Shown here: positions 5,501 to 41,030 of the stretch, piece after piece
How the letters are laid out: every line of letters starts with the position of its first letter
How positions within the stretch are numbered: position 1 is the stretch's first letter
Origin: Aplysia californica
Taxonomy: Eukaryota
NCBI RefSeq assembly: GCF_000002075.1
Contig: NW_004797756.1
Span: 273,242-329,301 of the forward strand
Direction: 5' to 3'
DNA: 56,060 nt
The notes under the pieces: model-generated
Databases searched by the model: none
Seen by the model: only the letters and a program-made list of their open reading frames with translations
What the model was told of the DNA's origin: nothing
Made by a program: the position numbers and the translations under genes

Positions 5501-8500
5501 GTGGATGAGCCTGGGCCACATCAAATATTCCACAAAGAAAAGGTTTCAAGTGTTTAAGAAGAAAGTGTAACTGATCTAATCTTCTCAAGTTTTACTAATA
5601 GCAGTTCGGAGCTATCGGTGGTTGTCATAAGCCTGAGCTATGGTAGCCTATAAGTGATACGCAGTATAAAAATCCGGGCCAGCACCTCGCCAAAAGATGC
5701 GTATGAGGAAAAGATGTGGGTTGCACAGACACTAAGACACTAAACTGTGATGTTAAGTATGGGCTGCAAAATATGGTGCTGTAAGCCTCAATTGGGAAAA
5801 TCTTCAGTGACTGTTTGTGTAGATGGCCGTATTGCACAGGTGGTCATCATGGCAGGTTCAACTGAATATTAAAAATCTATCTCTAGTTATTATTTACCCT
5901 TTTTAAAAAAATCGCATAGTTGCTGAGTAAGGCATCGTGATCAGACATATCAAGGTATAAATTCCATTTATTACCTTTCTTTGAACCCTTTAATTCCTGT
6001 GATGAAAGAGAAGCAGATTTTTGTTCAAACAGGCTGTTTTTTACTTACTGTCTTGTGGTTTTTCATGCAAGCTTCAAGTATTGCAATAATCCAACTAATT
6101 ACATATTTGAAATTTTTCCACTACAGATACTTTCTGGACAAACCCTCAGTTCCGAATGACCTTGACTGACCCAGATGATGATGATGAGGATGACCTCTGT
6201 ACAGCATTGGTTGCTGTGCTGCAGAAGGACAGACGCAAGAAGCGAAAGGAAGGCTTGGATCTTTTGACCATTGGTTATGTCATCTACAAGGTATAGTTTA
6301 ACTCTTTATCTCCGGCAAGCTGCTTCCTGCAGCTCGAGCACTTTCCTTTACAATGACTTTGACATCAAAATACTTTTCGGCAAATGCCGAAAACAGGTCT
6401 CTTTTATCGGGAGTTCATTCATAAGATGAAGAACAATTGAAATAGGTTCACTTGTTTTGATTTAACAACCCGTTTTGTGACGTTTTTGTCATTTTTAGAT
6501 ATAGTACCACAGAAGGGGCCCGAAATAGTGAGTTTACCGCTCACGGAGATAAAGAGTTAAAAAGTCTGGTTCATCTTCACTAAAATACAGTAATGAAACA
6601 TGTGGTTTGTCCTCTGTCATAAGTTTTGGTCCTTTGAACCAACATCTTCAGTGTAATGATTAAGTTCTACACTGCTGTATGCCAAAGATGTGTCTTCTTC
6701 AAGACTGATGTTGTAGTTAAGCACTTTGAAGAGACCAAACCACCTATTACATTTGGTTTAAGGATGATGAGAATTTTAATGTCTAGCTTCTTTCCTTTTG
6801 CATGTAGCATCAAAATAAATGCCCTTTAATTTTACTCTCACTCTTTTGTGCAGAAAGTCTGGAAAAAAATAAAGTGTTATATGTGTCCATAAGTTTTGTA
6901 TCCTTTCAAGATGGTAAGCAACAGTTTTTGGGTTTTTTCTTTCTTTTTAAATATTTTTTAAATAAAACTATTTGCTGAAAAGCTTTCTTAAAAAAATATT
7001 TTTTCTGTTCTTGCATTTGTCAGTTGGAAGATCCTGATGTTGGTCCTCTGGATATGAATTTCTTCAAGTACAATGCGTCTGTTGCAAAATCACCAACCTT
7101 CATCAACATGCGTGAAGTGTGTGGCAGGCACAAGCTACCTCCTGGTACCTATGCCATCCTTCCTTCGACGTTTGAGCCGCACTACGAGGGAGACTTCCTG
7201 ATGAGAATCTTTACTGAGAAGGCCAACGTTTCTGGGTAAGAAGCTTACAAGTTGCGTCAGTGACTGATCGCCAGTTGGAGCTTTGGTGAAAGTCTCTGTG
7301 AGGTGGATTTAATAATATTTGCAAAGGGTAGTTGATATAATTTCCTGTTTACCATTTGTTTTGAGTATAGTTTAGATCTTTGTGTTTGCCTGTTTTTTTG
7401 TCAGGGGTGGCATTCTCAAGCCTGAATCCAGTCTCATACAGGTGTAGGGACTGCTTTTGATTCAGTAAAAATTCTGTTAAGAGCCTATCTGGTCAAATAA
7501 TTGACTGAAGATTTATATTAATGGTCATGAATGGGTTGAACGTTTATTGAATTGTGAACCATTTGTCTTGCAGGGAAATTGACGAAAGGACGAGTTATGA
7601 GGAAGAAACTGTGAGTAATATGTCTAGCTGTTATGATATAGCTTATGTAAAGTCATATCGTTTCGCTGCAAACCTACCCCCACTGTCTTCTTCTTGGCTG
7701 CTGTACTGCCACTGCTCCGCAGCTACTGCTCTGCTCTATTGCTGTTCTGTCACCGTTCTGTTTGCTTGTAGTGTCCCCCTGTTGTCACTCATCATTTCAT
7801 CGTCCCCCCCATGTCTGTCTTTGTCATCCATCCGTTCATTCAAAGAATGATGTCTGGTTTTATATTCCTTTCTTTAAGTTTGATTCTATTAAGTTGATCA
7901 ACAGTCCCAATGTTTTTAGCCATGCTGTTATCATTTTTCTTTGGTTATTCATGCACTAGAAGCCTGTAGTATTGATGCACTCACAACATATTAGTTACTT
8001 TCCCTTTTCTTCAGATGTCACCATGTATTTATCTTATATCCCGTTTCATCAGTGTCATGCCATTACTAACACGGGGAAACTGGTGTCAAGGAAGGGCGAT
8101 TATGGATCATAGCTAACCTTTGGAGTAAGTTGAGAAACTGGAAAGTAAAGGGGAGGTTTGGAAACTCTGAAAATTTGGAAAATAGCCAGTTCTTTACAGT
8201 GTAAACAGCAGTCAAAGATCAGTCATAGGTGTTTATTTCTTCTACTTCATTAATGTAATGAGCTAGACCAAAGTTATTATTTTAATTAAAAATTAAATAA
8301 TTTTTTTGTTGGGGGGGGGGGGGGGGGGGGGGGGGATGGTATTGATTCAAATAATAACATTCTGTAAAATCTTGAATATGTTCATACTCAGTGGCAGAGT
8401 GACTTGTGTCAAAGGAATCACAAGATCAAGCTTTAGAATACGTGAAAAGTTGATTTGATGTTCAACATGTCCTTTTTTTTTTTTAGGAAAGAGACTAAAA

Positions 8501-11500
8501 TTACAGGAAGGTGGGTAGATTGTGAGCTGCTGTGGGATAAATGCTGAAGGGTAACAAAATATGTATATGGCAAAACTGTTAAAGAGAAACAGATAGATAG
8601 GCATGTGTCTTTTGAGGCATTTTAGCAGCAATCTGTGCTGCAAGGAGCATACAACTGCACGCAATCCACATGGACATTAAGGCAATGATGATAATTTTAC
8701 TATATAACTAACATTCATATCGAGCATTTCCATTTGCAAAGTACTGCTAACAAGAATTTTATGCACACATACGTTCACATTCATGCGTGTAGTATACTTT
8801 CTTTAATAATGAATTCTTTTAACAATTTCAGCCTTTACTCTTCATGATCATATATATATGTATTTAGACATGCTTCACCTTTATCACCTTCGAGTCTTGT
8901 GAACCCACATTTTCATTTCTACTTTTCCTGATTTTATTGAAATATATTACTGGAAAATTGCTTTGGGTCAGTATGTATAAAAACAGTGCACTTTTCCATT
9001 TGGGCGTTAAAAAATATCTAAACCTCACTTTATTTATCGCCGAGCTGATTTTTCGCAAAAAGTATTTTTTGTAGAGGAGGCGCTTTTCACATTTTCATCT
9101 GGCCCTCAGTGCTTTTTAGTAGTATTTTTTGCTCCTATAGACTTTTTCTTATTTCGATTATCACTGCTACAGTCTTTTGTCAATGTATTTGTTACTGTTT
9201 AGTTGAAGCAAGCTCCGGCACGTGTACCCCAGAGACCTGTGGGAGTAAGTTGCTTGCCCCTGCCTGTGATTTTGTTTTATAGCCGGAACTTATTATTTTT
9301 CTGGAATTTGAGTGTTCCATCAGTGTTTGTTGTTGACAAAAAAAAGCAAGTTTCCCCCTAAATATATGCATGGTTTTATTGAATGCTCTTGTGATTGTTT
9401 CCCAGAGAAACTGTAGTCATTTTGTTGTCCGTTTTGCTGTAAGCAGCCTGTTTTTTCTTTAAAAATTTTTTTTTAAATTTTGAGCTTGTCCATTGCATGT
9501 ATGTGAGTGACGTTTATACTTTCGTATTACTTTTGTATAATACTGCACATCCAAAGTGTTGACCCTCTGTTGAACTGATTTATGAGTTGTGGGAGCAGAA
9601 AAAAAAAATTTACTGCACTTCTTTAATTTGTTTTATTATTAATCTGCACACTTCACCACTCATGGGTCAATATTTTTCCCACTTACTCTTAATTCATTTG
9701 TCTATCCTGTGATCAACTCAGCCACAAATCAGACCCAAGCAATGAGTGGGACTAGTACATTACAAAGAAGAGTCCAGAGTAAAAGTACATAATAACCCTC
9801 CATTAGAAATTTACTTCACCTGTGCATATCTGGGGCCTCTGCTCTGTGTGGGTCCAAATGTGGATTGCTGTGATGATATGCACAGAAGACTTGTGGAACC
9901 TATTTGAAAAATGTGGGGTTCAGTTGGACTTTTACTGAGTCCAGATATAAGTTATTGAGTTGGATTAATGGGAGGCAATCATAAATAAATGACTGGGTCA
10001 GCACTTGGATTCACAACAGTGTGGATTGACTGTACTGATCCTATAAAGCATGCACGTCTTCCCACAAAGGTCATATCTTTCTCTACACAATATCGGCATG
10101 GATGAACAGTGAACAGCTGATCTGATGGTTGGATTCGCCGCTCCAAGAGTATACAAGGTTTCTGGATTTTCATCTGTGACATTCTTTGTAGTTTTTTAGT
10201 TTAAAAAAGTGTTCCCTCTGAAAGTGTTCGGATCTGGTTTAGTGTTTTTTAACTCCTCATAACAGCCTTGAAGTTTCGGTCTTGTATGTGGATGTATTCA
10301 AATGTGACGAGGGTCTTTACAATGTGCCAGATGGACGTTATTTTTGTCTGTTTTTGAGTGATGAAGGTAGGTTTCAGAGTATATAGAGGGTTTTATTTTT
10401 TCTCTATTTTACGTTCTACTGTTTTGCTTTGGATGTTCGTCATGTTCTCTTTGATCTTTTGTGGAGGATAGGCATGGCATTTCTCTTTCTCCTATTGGAT
10501 ATTCCTTCGAGTTTCCTCATCACTGGGAGAAAAATGTCCTGCCAGTTCATTTTGGTCTTTATGCCATTGAAAAGAGAATGGGAACAAGTTGTGTTTTACA
10601 TCCTAAGAAGTTTGGATTTGATTGTTGGTCTAATAAGCTTAATCGGTGTGAAAATCTTTTAATTTGTTGTGACTGAGCATGACGTTTTTTAAAATCAGTT
10701 TTTAGTGGCGGGTGCTGTGGTTTTCTAATTTTTGTGGACTAAATTGTTTTACTTGAGTGTTTGGTTCCCTTCTCTTGGGAGATGTACATTAAGCAGATTG
10801 GATCGAGAGCTTTCCTTTGATACTTGTCTCTAGAAAAGCCCTTTAGTTGTTTTCTGATCTGTTCCTTCTCCTTTGTCTTTGACTTGACATTCTATTAGCA
10901 GTTTTCTGTGGTCTGCCTGTCCTGCAGCCCCAGTTAAGTTTGATCAATGATGGATCTCCAGTTTTATGTCAAGATTATTCACAGCCAGACATTTTAATTT
11001 GTCTTCAGATTCGTTTTCTTTTTGAACAGCCTTTTTGTTTAGCTGTTATTTAACTGGTTTATGTTAGTTATGGAAAGGACATTTTCAATACTCTATGCTT
11101 TCTGTGATCATAGTTTGGATGTTCCAATATTGTGTTGTGGTTTGGGAGAGAGTAAATTTCTACATACGTACTGGTTTTTTTCCTCTACAGTGTCTATCTC
11201 ATCAAAATGGTTGTGTGTCCCCGTTTCTTTTTCTGATATTAAAACACAAATAGTGACCCCTCAAATAACAATATACAGGAAAATAACAGAATAATGTAAC
11301 TTATCTATGTAGAATACTGTCATGGTTGTATTTTCAATGACTGAAATAACAAGTATTGTGTATGTTCTGTGCAGAAGTAGCATGGACTAAATGCTAACAA
11401 AATGATAATTACTGTAAATTGTGCATTATAAAACATAACTTACATCATGTTTTGAAGTAGGTAGTTTTTTGACCAGCATTTTGCTGATGGCAGTTCACGT

Positions 11501-14500
11501 TTAGATATTTTGAAATACTGCTTGTTTTAACTTCTACTGTAAGCGAATGACACCCTAGAATAACAGAAGCATCATATTTCAGTTTCATGAAGCAGTTGAA
11601 TGTTGCATATCTATACTCATTTTGTGACTTTCACTACCTGACAATTTTATAGACACCTAACTTTTTTCAATGAAACTCTATGAACCATTCGTCTCTTGTT
11701 GATTATTGTCAAAGAAAAAGTCAGTACCACTGCGAGTATATGTGAGCGAGGTCAAGGGAAATATAATTAAAGTTTCTGAATTTCTGAGAATCTTTGCATT
11801 TGTGTCTCCTGGCCGGGGCCAACGAAGCAGGTTCCTCTGCCAGTCAAGCCGCTCCTGCTTATAGCGCTCCGCCACCCAAGGTAGAACTGGATTGCCTCCC
11901 CTACCTGTGTGGTCACCGTTGTCAATAACCGTCCCCAAATCATATAATGAGCCCCCCCCCCCCAAAAAAAAAAATAATCCCTAAAAACTAATTGTCAATA
12001 CAAGTAATTTGTACCCTTTCTTCTGTTGGCCCTACATGTGTGGTGTGACCATCATTTACCGTCATCTTCACCAAATCACATAACAATAAAGAAAAAAAAA
12101 AAATAGGCCCTGATAACTAACTGCATAATTTGAGTCCCATATTCTTTTGATCTGATCACAATTTCTTCCTGAGATGTGGTCACGTTTGTCAATAGTCTTC
12201 CACAAATCACCCGTGTGGATCGATAACAACAATAACAACAACCACAAATCACTTAACATGCCAAAAAGAAAAAAAGACTTTGATAACTGTTAATAATTTG
12301 TACCCATTTCCTGTTGATTAGAACTGGTTTTGATTCTGAGATGTGTGTAATCTTTCCCATATCACGTAACTTCTTAAAGAAAGTCAGTAACAAACTCTGA
12401 TAACTAAATGTTGATTTGTCTCTCCCCCCCCCCCTTAAAAAAAAATCCAAACTTAATTTCCTGTTCAGGTGTATTGCCATTTGTCATGACTGTTCCCTTT
12501 CAAATGATGCATGCTCTTTGGAGAACCCTTTGAATGAGTTACCAATGTTCAAGGAAAGAAAATTGTTGATTATTCAATGAAAATCATTACAGTAAACAGA
12601 TCTATATCACCTTGATGAGAATTTCCTCTTTTAAGAAGTTGTTTTCGCAAACAGTAACCTTCCTCCAGATCCCATTCCACATGAAGGGACTTCTTTATGG
12701 AAAAATGTCTTTTTGGGGAATCTTTAGGGGTGGGGGGGACTTCTAGACGTGACTGGAAATCTGTTTATAATCTGCTCACTGTAATCTTTGTTCAGATGTC
12801 TGTTTCTGGCTTGTTGCCATTTAATTTGTTAATTTCCTTTGGCAGTACATTATGTTGTGCCAATTGATGAACAAGGTTTTGACCATAGTGAACCAGTAAC
12901 AGCTCACCAAAAGCCAAGTGATAGTTATCTCAGTTTTCTCTTAAATGAATATGTGTCCATTTCTGTTGATCAGAGTGAGATTTTCTCTTGACATCTCATA
13001 TCTTTTTTCAAGTATTCTTCTTCCGTTAGGTGTAATGATATATCAACAGCACACCATAAATAACTTAATGTAGACAAAAGAACATCAGCGTGAGATCCCA
13101 GAAAGGCCCCAGTCCTCTTTTACTAAGTTTTATTTTATATTCTTTGATGTTCATCAAAACTCAGTGTTCACTATGGGTTAGTTTTCCATCCTCTGAACAA
13201 ACACCGTAGGGAAGTGTAGATGATTAACCCTATCCGTAGGCCCTGGGGTCATTTTGTACCCCCAGGGTTGTATTCTTCACATTTTAGAATACTTCTAGTC
13301 TGAAGATCTCTTTGAAACTTTCAGTATTTCTAAATAAATCGTTTTGACAGACTGCTGTGCAAAGCGTACGGATCGGATTAACGAGTAAATGTCCTCTTTG
13401 AAAGTGGCGGCACAGAGTTCCCCTTGTCGTATGGGTACGATAATAAAACACAACGTACGGATTGGGTTAAAGAAATTGGCAACACTATTATATGCAGAAA
13501 GGTGACTGAGGGTAATTTTTACTCCTGTTGACATATTACGTTGTTGATTCCCTCTCATATTCACCTTGTTAATAAAAGGTGCATAGCATAAACAAATTTC
13601 CTTGTGTGACTTTTAGAAATTAAGATTGCAGAAATCTATGAGAGTTCAATGAAAGCCCACATCATTATTAACTATGGGTTGTATCCTTTTATGTTCTTAC
13701 CTCAGTAGATTTGTCACCATTGTCAGTAACATCTTCCAAAGTTGTATATAATGTTTATTAGTTAAAAACACCTTGAATGACCTTCAGAGATATTGGAAAA
13801 TTTCCACCGATCTAATATTCGTAAGACTTAATGAATTGCAATTTTTGTAGATCAATTCTAGATTGATAACATGTTGGCCCGTTAATCAGTGTTTTGAAAG
13901 TAGGACTAAAGTGTCTGTAACAATTGTGTTTTCAGTCATCAGTTTCCTGCCTTTTGTTGTAAATGTTGAAAGATTGCTGTAATTATCCATTGATTGATCC
14001 AATTTCCTTGATCTCAAGGGACCAAACTAGTGAACTCCTTACAGTTATTCTCTGTTGTCAGTAGTTCCTTCCTGCCCCCCACCCACCTAGAACATATCTC
14101 ACAAGCTGACAGCCTCTCCAGCAGGTCCTCTCCTCTGTGTAGCTCTCATCCATGCTTGTGTTTCTTCCCTCTGTAGGCAAGAAATGCCCAAAAGAAGAGA
14201 AGAGTAAGTTTCTACTCCTCACAGTATGTGCCCTCTCTTCCTTCCAGTGGCTTGTGCGTCTTTCAGTTGGCCATGTTGTCTCGTTTAATACTAATCGACT
14301 TCCTAGTGCGGTGGCTTGACACCTTGTGACAGTGAATTTGATGCCTCTCGAATGCAAAACAATAATCTTCTAGGACTGAATTTTGTTTTTTCATTTTTAA
14401 AGAAATGAAATTGTGAGTTGTTTTTTTTGTTTTAATCTATTGAGTTTGTATTATAATAATATTTTGAGTTTACCTGTATTTTGTTTTAAGATTTGCAGTT

Positions 14501-36092: not shown

Positions 36093-36878
36093 ATATATAT
36101 AGTATCTTTTTAACGGTTGAATCTTTGCCACCCATGCTTTGCACAGCAGTTTGTATCGATAATTTGTCTTAACTTAATCATATTTTTCCCTCAACAATAG
36201 AGGCTAGATTAAAAATCTTTTCTTCATTAATTTATATAAAATTAAACTACAAATCTCCTTCTCACGGAAAATGGAATTGTTGACAGCACTTCCTGCTTCT
36301 CACTCACATTTTGCATATATATATATACGCATGTATGGCTTACATCACAGATCACCTATGACACTTTTTAATGGCAAAACTAGTGACAAGAAATTAATTT
36401 TATAGTGAACACTTTTTTGCACTAAAAGTTCTCAAAACATGCGTTCAATAAAGATAATCTCGCTATTACAAAAAAATGACAGAATTGCTTTTAAAAGTAA
36501 AAATAATATTGTCCCAGCTATAAACCTTTTAAAATCAGTAGAAACCACCCTCTGGGATTTTTTATTAGTATTTATTAAGGAATTTTCTAGAATAGAGCTA
36601 TCAGATGTTAAAAAAAAATTGGTCTGTTAAGACAAATTGACACAAGTCACTTTTTGATAGTTGAGGAGATAGCCTATTTGACAATAAGTTGCGCCACGAA
36701 TTTTTGACCTCACTAATAGCTACTGTACAAAGCAATATATAAACCAGAGTTTCATTAAACTTTTCTCAATGCTTCGGAGTAATGAAACAGATCTATGCCT
36801 GCGTCTGGTGTAGAAGTTAGGCACTTCACAGTCACAGGCTGAAGACCCTCTGTAGGGAGGATTTTTATTGAGTGGTGT

Positions 36879-37181
36879 TTCTGCTGGGATGATGTCTTTC
36901 TTTCATCTTCTCGTTCATCTCATGTCCCAGACTCTAGTGTGAAGGCTGCTGTTTACCCAAGATCCTCCAGGCCCCCATACAGTCATAGAGTCATGGGTCT
37001 CTCAGCTTAAGGTTGGGTCAATATTTCCTTCTGCTGGGATGATGTCTTTCTTTCGTCTTCTCGTTCATCTCATGTCCCAAACTCTAGTGTGAAGGCTGCT
37101 GTTTACCCAAGATCCTCCTGGCCCCCATACAGTGGTGGGTCTCTCTGCTTAGGGTTGGGTCAGTATTTCCTTCTGCTGGGA
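36879..37181. repeat. 150-bp tandem repeat, array 1 (about 2 units)
   Basis: tgctgggat recurs at 36882, 37032 and 37174 (the second unit is 8 nt shorter). Confidence 0.9.
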
Positions 37182-38030
37182 TTTTGTATCCTGGGTTGAG
37201 CCTGACATGCAGGGTCAAAGTCTGCCTCTTTGATTATCAAAATTGTGTCAGTGGGGCATAAAACACCCTCCTAAAACAAACCAAAAAAAAGATCTAAAAT
37301 GGTGATTCTTATATGGAAGGGACGTAAAATAATAACTCGTATTTAGCTTTGAATTTCGGTGGTCCGGTGTTTCAAGCTTTATATTTTGTGACGCAATGAT
37401 CACAAGTATTTTGTTTGTGGAAGAAGAGAACAGAGTGGAAGAGGTTGCACTATAGTTTATTTTAGGGCATTCTTGCGTGATAATGACCACTTTTTGCTCA
37501 GATGGATAAAGGAAGCAATAACCCTGAAATAAAGTAGGAGGAGCACTGTCCAACCACCCTAAAAAATAAAGTGGAGATTACAGGTAGCCNNNNNNNNNNN
37601 NNNNNNNNNNNNNNNNNNNNNNNNNNNNNNNNNNNNNNNNNNNNNNNNNNNNNNNNNNNNNNNNNNNNNNNNNNNNNNNNNNNNNNNNNTACTCAAACAT
37701 GGAACGACGTGTTTTCGGTAACATTTCGGATTTTCTAGATCTAGAATCTAGATTCTAGATCTAGAGATCTATTAGGCCTACCTGGACATGATGGAAGACC
37801 GCACGAAAATTGCCGTAAAGACGCAGGAGGACTAGATAATATCTAGATTCTAGATCTAGATCTAGATATCTAAATTTAGATCTACCACCCCCCCCCCCCT
37901 CCTGCATTTTTAATCACTAATACATTTTAAAAAATAAACAACAACTTCAAAGTCAAAGCAACTCTACAAATTAGGCCTATAATTTATGGAACTGTTGGTC
38001 AGTCGGGAGGAGGAAAAGAGAAAAAAAAAC

Positions 38031-39516: not shown

Positions 39517-40495
39517 CGAGGGCTGTCCCACGGAAAACCGGAATTTGGCTGTAATTTGAAAACTATTCAATATTTTCACATTCTGTAAACGCACACTTGT
39601 AAAACAATCATTTAGAAATTTCCCGATTGAGCACCATGAGCATCGCACAAACCAAACGAGCACAGCAGTTCTCAAAAGATGGCTACGCACTTGGAAAATT
39701 GGTCAAGGGTACAAGTGAGGTCTGTCATTCGGTTTCTGACCGCAAAAGGTCTCAAACCTCTAGAAATACACACTGAAATAAAGTCAGTTTATGGGGAGAA
39801 AGTAATGGCAAAGTCACAGGTATATGAGTGATGTAGTAAGTTCAAAGCCGGGCACTCCGATATCAATGACAAAGTTTACCCAGGCTCTTGTTTTTCTGCC
39901 AAGACTGAGGACAACAAGAGTCGCGTTAACGAACTTAGGTATTCAAACAGACAGGCGCCTAAAAATTCGCGAAATTTGCGAGTGGCTAAACATTTCAAAG
40001 TCGACTTTCTATAGGATAGAGTTTGATGAGCTGCACTGTTGAAAGGTGTCTGCTTGATGGGTTGGGGCCGAAAAAGACCAGCGGGATCATTTTGCAGCAT
40101 GGCAACACAACGCCACACACTGCAAACGTCACGAAAGACTGGTTCCAAAGGTTCGGCTAGGAATTTCTACTACACCCCCCTCACAGTCCTGACTTGGCCC
40201 TGTCAGATTATCACCTTTTTGAACCAATGAAACGCCATATTTCTGGACAGCGATTCACCGACGACGAAGACCTCGTGGTAGCCGTGAACGATTGGTTGAA
40301 ATCCCTTGAAGAAAGATTCTTCAGGGAGGGTATCTTCTCCCAGATCCAGCGATGGGAAAAATGTGTCCAGCGGGATGGTGATTACATTGAGAAATAAAGC
40401 ACATGTTGAGGTATGATGTCTTACAGTTTTATTATAATAGGACAAAGATTTTTGCTTTTACGGACCTTTTCCGGTTTTCCGTGGGACAGCCCTCG
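39517..40495 (+). mobile_element. Mariner (Tc1/mariner) DNA transposon, internally deleted, pseudogenised transposase
   Basis: Perfect 27-bp TIRs CGAGGGCTGTCCCACGGAAAACCGGAA with TA on both sides. Remnants: VRSVIRFLTAKG...EIKSVYGE...QVYE*CSKFKAG (HTH), LQHGNTTPHT (HDNA motif), HPPHSPDLALSDYHLF (YSPDLAP motif), RWEKCVQRDGDYIEK*. Confidence 0.95.
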
Positions 40496-40657: not shown

Positions 40658-41030
40658 TTCTGCTGGGATGATGTCTTTCTTTCATCTTCTCGTTCATCTC
40701 ATGTCCCAGACTCTAGTGTGAAGGCTGCTGTTTACCCAAGATCCTCCAGGCCCCCATACAGTCATAGAGTCATGGGTCTCTCAGCTTAAGGTTGGGTCAA
40801 TATTTCCTTCTGCTGGGATGATGTCTTTCTTTCATCTTCTCGTTCATCTCATGTCCCAGACTCTAGTGTGAAGGCTGCTGTTTACCCAAGATCCTCCAGG
40901 CCCCCATACAGTCATAGAGTCATGGGTCTCTCAGCTTAAGGTTGGGTCAATATTTCCTTCTGCTGGGATGATGTCTTTCTTTCATCTTCTCGTTCATCTC
41001 ATGTCCCAAACTCTAGTGTGAAGGCTGCTG
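40658..41030. repeat. 150-bp tandem repeat, array 2 (at least 2.5 units, runs into gap)
   Basis: tgctgggatg recurs at 40661, 40811 and 40961; same unit as array 1. Confidence 0.9.

Follow-up and report, generated by a model that had tools for sequence, protein, structure and literature searches.

In-frame cassette exons in the C2L–PEF linker of an Aplysia calpain, at a site likely shared with calpain-3 IS2

Introduction

Vertebrate CAPN3 carries, in the linker between its C2L and PEF domains, an alternatively spliced insert, IS2, which has the consensus PIxFVSDRxxxNK (supplement of PMC2906292), is described as a vertebrate addition (PMC2906292), and both binds titin N2A and contains an autolysis site (PMC8645139; bioRxiv 10.1101/257261). 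Splicing in this region has also been described for the Aplysia classical calpain AplCCal1, for which Hastings et al. (2017; PMC5650170) reported inserts a, b, and c; the enzyme belongs to family A, resembles Drosophila CalpA/B, has no clear orthology to the vertebrate classical calpains, cleaves PKC to PKM, is required for forms of long-term facilitation, and needs 0.5–1.25 mM Ca2+ in vitro (PMC5650170). Here we describe a window of 56,060 nucleotides from Aplysia californica (RefSeq assembly GCF_000002075.1, contig NW_004797756.1, positions 273,242 to 329,301, forward strand; all coordinates below are window positions). Judged by sequence, its gene is this memory-linked protease, because all three published inserts are present in the window letter for letter. 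An earlier note on the same DNA had proposed two hidden mini-exons in a linker intron, one of them encoding a cluster like a nuclear localization signal, and had likened them to IS2.

Loss of IS2 exons has effects on CAPN3 itself: without exons 15–16 the Na+ dependence of autolysis is lowered, and without exon 15 alone caseinolysis is raised (PMC2906292; bioRxiv 10.1101/257261). Exons 15–16 are RBFOX-dependent in mouse (bioRxiv 10.1101/257261), and the DIII–DIV linker has been described in a modelling paper as a transducer of the calcium signal (PMC4057710). 

Two cassette exons are spliced into the linker

The phase-0 intron at 7611–20581 (13 kb) holds two short exons, for which the coordinates, phases, and translations given in the earlier note were exact:

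9203..9244, + strand: cassette A, net charge +3, the published AplCCal1 insert a (PMC5650170); joints in runs X4 and X5; orthologues in Biomphalaria, Arion, and Candidula
14177..14203, + strand: cassette K, 27-nt basic microexon ARNAQKKRR, net charge +5; three joints and three snail orthologues

Both are in phase 0 (A has 42 nt, K has 27) and both have a TAG acceptor and a GTAAGT donor. Their splice sites had been called strong, which holds for the two donors and the acceptor at 14177 (80% pyrimidine), whereas the acceptor at 9203 is moderate (65% pyrimidine; −4.9 versus +7.4 in a rough generic splice matrix). In the intron, A and K are the sole stop-free in-frame YAG...GTAAGT segments of 9–150 nt that reach a pyrimidine fraction of 0.65, a threshold chosen after exon A had been seen. 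In 200 third-order Markov simulations the mean number of such segments was 0.165, with P = 0.025 for two or more, and the reverse strand held none; with the looser donor GTRAG the excess was gone (3 segments versus a mean of 1.3, P = 0.175).

Eight of 24 listed runs were examined, five as contigs (X4, X5, X6, X19, and X20) and three as raw reads (X21–X23). The contig runs are not recorded as RNA, and it is their GT..AG joints that reveal spliced transcripts; the raw-read runs, with a mean depth below 1 per bin over the gene and joints crowded by repeats, are uninformative on inclusion. The skip joint 7610>20582 was found in all five contig runs and in one read from one of the three raw-read runs. 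Cassette A is spliced in two of the five contig runs, X4 and X5, with the joint 9244>20582 in both, and its proposed upstream junction 7610>9203 appears as two 13-nt loose ends in X5, with no full joint. Cassette K is likewise spliced in two of the five, from two studies: 14203>20582 is present in X4 and X5, 9244>14177 (A together with K) in X5, and 11880>14177 in X4. The first two of these had been proposed beforehand; the proposed K-alone joint 7610>14177 is not among the joints listed, and no K junction is among those listed for X6, X19, X20, or the three raw-read runs. With inclusion joints in X4 and X5 and the skip form in every contig run, the two mini-exons are really spliced: A and K are frame-preserving alternative cassette exons, and A is spliced alone or together with K. 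The outcome that the earlier note held to speak against it, a gene with only 7610>20582 junctions and islands unconserved in relatives, is not what was found, as there are both inclusion joints and snail orthologues. Contig depths, a poor measure, were 7919 for the skip form, 1630 for A, and 18 for K in X4, and 95 for the skip form, 23 for A, and 29 for A+K in X5; they suggest that cassette inclusion differs between samples.

Separately, the intron stretch 8443–9245 before cassette A is covered in four of four contig runs, the coverage beginning near a T run at about 8472–8486, for which slow splicing, antisense RNA, and internal priming are candidates. Abundantly transcribed interspersed repeats in introns (13224–13443, 22000–22450, and 23000–23400) draw most of the mapped reads.

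Further candidate cassettes in the same intron

The two exons of the earlier note are both real, but two more candidates in the intron had been overlooked:

11812..11880, + strand: cassette M, net charge 0, predicted acceptor CTG and not AG; joint 11880>14177 in X4, start placed by homology
16687..16716, + strand: cassette E, 30-nt acidic exon, net charge −6, weak donor GTTGAC; joint 16716>20582 in X4 only, start placed by its TAG acceptor

For each of them the downstream joint alone was observed, both times in X4. An orthologue of cassette M is present in both Arion and Biomphalaria (shuffle p = 0.0006), and the reading frame of M matches Arion ARGYGDEISAYQVAPAYSAPSQ. Its joint sits on an X4 contig that continues through the upstream intron. 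The start at 11812 set by homology is preceded by a pyrimidine tract ending in CTG (11809–11811), and M has no stop-free in-frame AG, the upstream in-frame AGs meeting a TGA at 11785 and the downstream ones all being out of frame. The T at 11810 is probably genuine and not an assembly error, because the X4 contig that reads through is listed without a difference at this position (20 of its 22 differences are listed). No second copy of the M region was found in the genome. M may be an exon in decay, a polymorphic one, or a case of splicing at a TG–AG tandem; AGs lie 16 and 19 nt downstream of its TG, no junction into 11812 was seen, and human TG–AG tandem 3′ splice sites have the AG within 28 nt of the TG (PMC2374985). 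Cassette E has a good acceptor, and acidic cassettes stand at its site in Haliotis, Littorina, and Patella, to which E is not alignable.

Conservation across molluscs

The conservation in relatives that the earlier note had asked for was found for both of its cassettes in pulmonate snails. Orthologues of A are present in Biomphalaria, Arion, and Candidula (shuffle p < 0.0002), and those of K are AKNAPKQKY (Biomphalaria), AKNAPQKQR (Arion), and AKNGPGKGK (Physella), all of 9 residues; K ranks at the top of 323 AG..GT intron candidates for each of the three (shuffle p = 0.0018). The order A-M-K is retained in the pulmonate isoforms of Arion and Biomphalaria. What these alignments indicate as conserved in K is the 9-residue length, the A[KR]N start, and a positive net charge; the contiguous basic cluster is not shared.

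Linker cassettes occur at the same point in 15 of 15 mollusc taxa with paired isoforms, taxa that were selected for having inserts (43 in total, 3 of them parsed imperfectly) and whose isoforms are predicted, those listed being 15 of the 26 cluster members for Biomphalaria and 15 of the 22 for Haliotis. On these predicted isoforms, cassette splicing at the linker site is mollusc-wide, and the earlier view of the cassettes as a peculiarity of this calpain falls away. Short basic last cassettes, 5–10 residues long, are general, with examples in Haliotis, Littorina, Patella, Gigantopelta, scallops, and oysters; acidic last cassettes were found in three gastropod genera (Haliotis, Littorina, and Patella). 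None of the 38 listed isoforms from those three genera has a basic and an acidic cassette together; 10 carry each, and about 2.4 with both would be expected if the two were independent. The PxxP that had been read in A is not supported as a conserved motif, being absent by eye in the three pulmonate A orthologues, although a PxxP does occur in the counterparts from Haliotis, Littorina, and Patella.

Several mollusc inserts have no counterpart that we found in the window, namely Biomphalaria TGNKLPDVPK, Physella EDANHNKKKPKEHTDK, the long Gly/Pro/Tyr exon of Elysia, and the insert upstream of the 37-nt exon. Elysia (P0146, P0018) and Ruditapes (P0088) carry linker inserts of ~260–270 residues rich in Gly/Pro/Tyr at the same site, and the long Elysia insert ends in RKRR or RKK.

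Gene layout and the position of IS2

Window exons match Pfam Peptidase_C2 and Calpain_III, the EF-hand families are matched on homologues, and the nearest named proteins in the protein search are gastropod calpains with identity of up to 90%. These searches returned no 100% match and Aplysia's own annotated isoforms were not among the matches, so K, M, and E may already be in RefSeq. The exons around the cassettes are:

6231..6248, + strand: constitutive basic cluster RRKKRK in C2L, from the translation; its exon matches Pfam Calpain_III (E 3e-18)
7024..7235, + strand: last C2L-domain exon, ending in phase 2; Pfam Calpain_III (E 1.1e-18), joint 7235>7574 in 5/5 contig runs
7574..7610, + strand: constitutive 37-nt linker exon, phase 2 to 0, likely counterpart of CAPN3 exon 14, from joints, CAPN3 coordinates, and sea bream CAPN3
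20582..20717, + strand: constitutive exon with the linker end and first EF hand, from the skip joint (5/5 contig runs and one raw read) and homologues
21145..21159, + strand: published insert c (GRSGR), phase 1, after EF1 (PMC5650170); loose ends behind 20719 in X4 and X19
24034..24045, + strand: published insert b (DCFE), phase 1, after EF1 (PMC5650170); loose end behind 20717 in X20

Inserts c and b fall within the PEF domain here, past the first EF hand, and the paper, as far as available, puts both between C2L and PEF (PMC5650170). X5 shows neither of them. Inserts of 3–6 residues like b and c are present in many molluscs.

In CAPN3, exon 14 starts at c.1746 (within Glu582), intron 14 follows c.1782, and exon 15 encodes the 6 residues Lys595–Lys600 (PMC8645139). 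Exon 14 deduced from these numbers is 37 nt long and runs from phase 2 to phase 0, and window 7574–7610 has the same size, phase, and position. The position of IS2 was thus deduced from published c. and residue numbers and compared by eye with sea bream CAPN3, whose RVFSEKQSTSE-EVENT (PMC3783371, supplement 3) lines up with the linker segment of the window. Because the upstream 37-nt phase-2/0 exon matches CAPN3 exon 14, the cassettes likely lie in the same ancestral intron as IS2, and the equivalence of site suggested in the earlier note is likely to be right.

The peptides themselves are another matter, as the IS2 consensus start P[IV]xFVS is found in 0 of 214 fetched proteins and 0 of the 4 window cassettes. 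Since no sequence is shared with IS2 and IS2 is described as a vertebrate addition, independent gain in molluscs and vertebrates, also the earlier note's view, is the simplest reading; alternatively, the intron may be an ancestral hotspot in which the cassettes have turned over completely. As to regulation, the RBFOX-type motif TGCATG occurs seven times in the intron against 2.8 expected from base composition, and two copies follow cassette A:

9367..9499, + strand: two TGCATG elements, +123 and +250 downstream of cassette A, from the motif count; putative regulatory role

These two are only suggestive of RBFOX regulation of the cassettes.

Elsewhere in the window, 39640–40394 holds a broken mariner-like transposase remnant with a match to Mos1 HTH too weak to pass the Pfam cut-off, and 40658–41030 a 150-bp tandem repeat (2.5 copies, 99% match), of which a second copy of the unit lies upstream at ~36850–37200, seen in translations.

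A proposed role in linker length and charge

The reading we favor, with middling confidence, is that the cassettes act by tuning the length and net charge (+3, +5, −6) of the linker, and not as a nuclear-import switch. In-frame cassettes, included in some samples and skipped in others, would change the length and charge of a predicted-disordered C2L–PEF linker, and through it the enzyme's activation by calcium, its autolysis, or its electrostatic docking would be adjusted. The 28 residues that flank the cassettes carry a net charge of −10, which makes this part of the linker strongly acidic; A+K would offset most of that charge and E would add to it. A basic last cassette seems to be used in place of an acidic one, or the reverse. 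An effect on activation or autolysis, like RBFOX regulation, is proposed by analogy with CAPN3 exons 15–16. When the A+K isoform of Biomphalaria was modelled with AlphaFold2 from a 60-sequence alignment (mean pLDDT 71.5), pLDDT was below 50 at 637–661, where the cassettes occupy 638–659, with folded C2L and PEF on either side.

Several points weigh against tuning by length and charge. AplCCal1a (with insert a) and 1b (without) have both been assayed and, in the available part of the paper, no difference due to insert a is reported, though this was not a designed comparison (PMC5650170). The exclusion seen in 0 of 38 isoforms is weak, with about a 1-in-10 chance of arising at random, and comes from predicted isoforms with 15 of 22 Haliotis cluster members. 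The low pLDDT of the cassette region partly reflects alignment gaps, E is known from a single junction in X4 and lacks an orthologue that can be aligned to it, and the lone Biomphalaria cassette TGNKLPDVPK is not acidic.

A much bolder extension, which we consider a long shot, is that the same ancestral intron independently became a splicing switch in molluscs and vertebrates. In gastropods this would be a mutually exclusive basic/acidic charge switch under RBFOX, on which the calcium threshold or else the location of the PKM-making calpain would depend during memory formation, and M would persist via a rare TG acceptor.

Alternative explanations

Instead of tuning the linker in bulk, the cassettes could be specific docking or cleavage modules for partner binding or autolysis, as the titin N2A binding and autolysis site of IS2 would suggest. 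A, M, and K keep their order and some residues from Aplysia to the pulmonates, and Pro-rich basic counterparts of A occur throughout gastropods; against this, the pulmonate A orthologues have no PxxP, gastropod and bivalve peptides are not alignable, and autolysis of AplCCal1a, in the available part of the paper, occurs only at the N terminus and yields a stable product (PMC5650170). We regard such modules as unlikely, if worth keeping in mind.

The minimal monopartite consensus of a nuclear localization signal is K[KR]x[KR], which KKRR in cassette K fits. A switchable signal of this kind would make K a functional parallel of CAPN3 exon 15, at whose position K would sit, in a predicted exposed loop; a different Physella cassette has KKKPK, and CAPN3 is stated to carry a nuclear translocation signal (PMC2150676). 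The core is nevertheless missing from all three orthologous K exons, which leaves the signal unsupported as a conserved role, and is present in just 1 of 43 mollusc linker inserts. Acidic residues lie on either side of K, and RRKKRK in C2L, which itself fits K[KR]x[KR], is carried by every isoform; a similar cluster occurs in 190 of the 214 fetched proteins. In the available text of the AplCCal1 paper, "nuclear" and "localiz" have 0 occurrences (PMC5650170). For these reasons of core, flanks, and constitutive cluster the nuclear reading is weak and in our view improbable, and any nuclear role would have to be lineage-specific.

The linker might also merely tolerate in-frame inserts, the cassettes being real but nearly neutral and turning over. 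Linker inserts are indeed very varied (4 to >250 residues), M seems to have lost its AG in Aplysia, and in X4 the joints of K, M, and E are minor ones by contig depth, poor though that measure is. Yet K holds 9 codons and A[KR]N in four genera, A-M-K order is retained in Arion and Biomphalaria, and the A+K depth in X5 is of the same order as those of A alone and the skip form, which leaves neutrality quite improbable.

A reading of K as noise in splicing, or as a pseudo-exon arisen by chance, would fit its absence from the available text of PMC5650170 and from the junctions listed for the other runs, but is hardly credible given three distinct GT..AG joints from two studies and three orthologues, and the junctions already refute it unless the X4 and X5 contigs are artefacts.

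Significance and comparison with described systems

Taken as a whole, the earlier interpretation keeps its real cassettes, a likely IS2-equivalent site, and independent gain as the simplest reading, and loses the conserved nuclear signal, the PxxP motif, uniqueness, and the word "hidden", as cassette A was published in 2017 as insert a (PMC5650170). K, M, E, and the IS2 comparison were found neither in the text or searchable supplements of that paper (two image-only files and Fig. 5 lie outside this scope) nor in the literature searched. They add to a gene region already known as spliced, and orthologous isoforms are in public annotation, so the subject is partly known. The published AplCCal1 constructs, as far as described in the available text, are without K and E. 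Should the cassettes affect the enzyme's calcium sensitivity, its stability, or its location, the PKC-to-PKM step would be under a control that has gone unexamined, namely cell-specific splicing. The intron position, likely common with CAPN3 IS2, offers a clear instance of exons gained in parallel. As it stands, the gain is one of annotation, with up to three more small exons.

Compared with the inserts of AplCCal1 (PMC5650170), the gene is the same and a, b, and c are all found in the window, at 9203–9244, 24034–24045, and 21145–21159. The calpain-A/B-like isoforms of other molluscs (Biomphalaria glabrata XP_055880782.1, Physella acuta XP_059154720.1, Arion vulgaris A0A0B7AGL1) are alike in insertion point, in the A/M/K peptides, and in their order; they differ in that their K is without the KKRR cluster and M is annotated there, whereas Aplysia M has TG at its predicted acceptor and Aplysia E is without an alignable match. 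With CAPN3 IS2 the locus shares in-frame alternative exons, which in CAPN3 include a short microexon bounded by Lys, directly after a 37-nt phase-2/0 exon of the C2L–PEF linker, and RBFOX dependence in mouse has a possible parallel in the TGCATG elements downstream of A. The peptides are unrelated, and while inclusion is the muscle default in CAPN3, skipping is the common form in AplCCal1.

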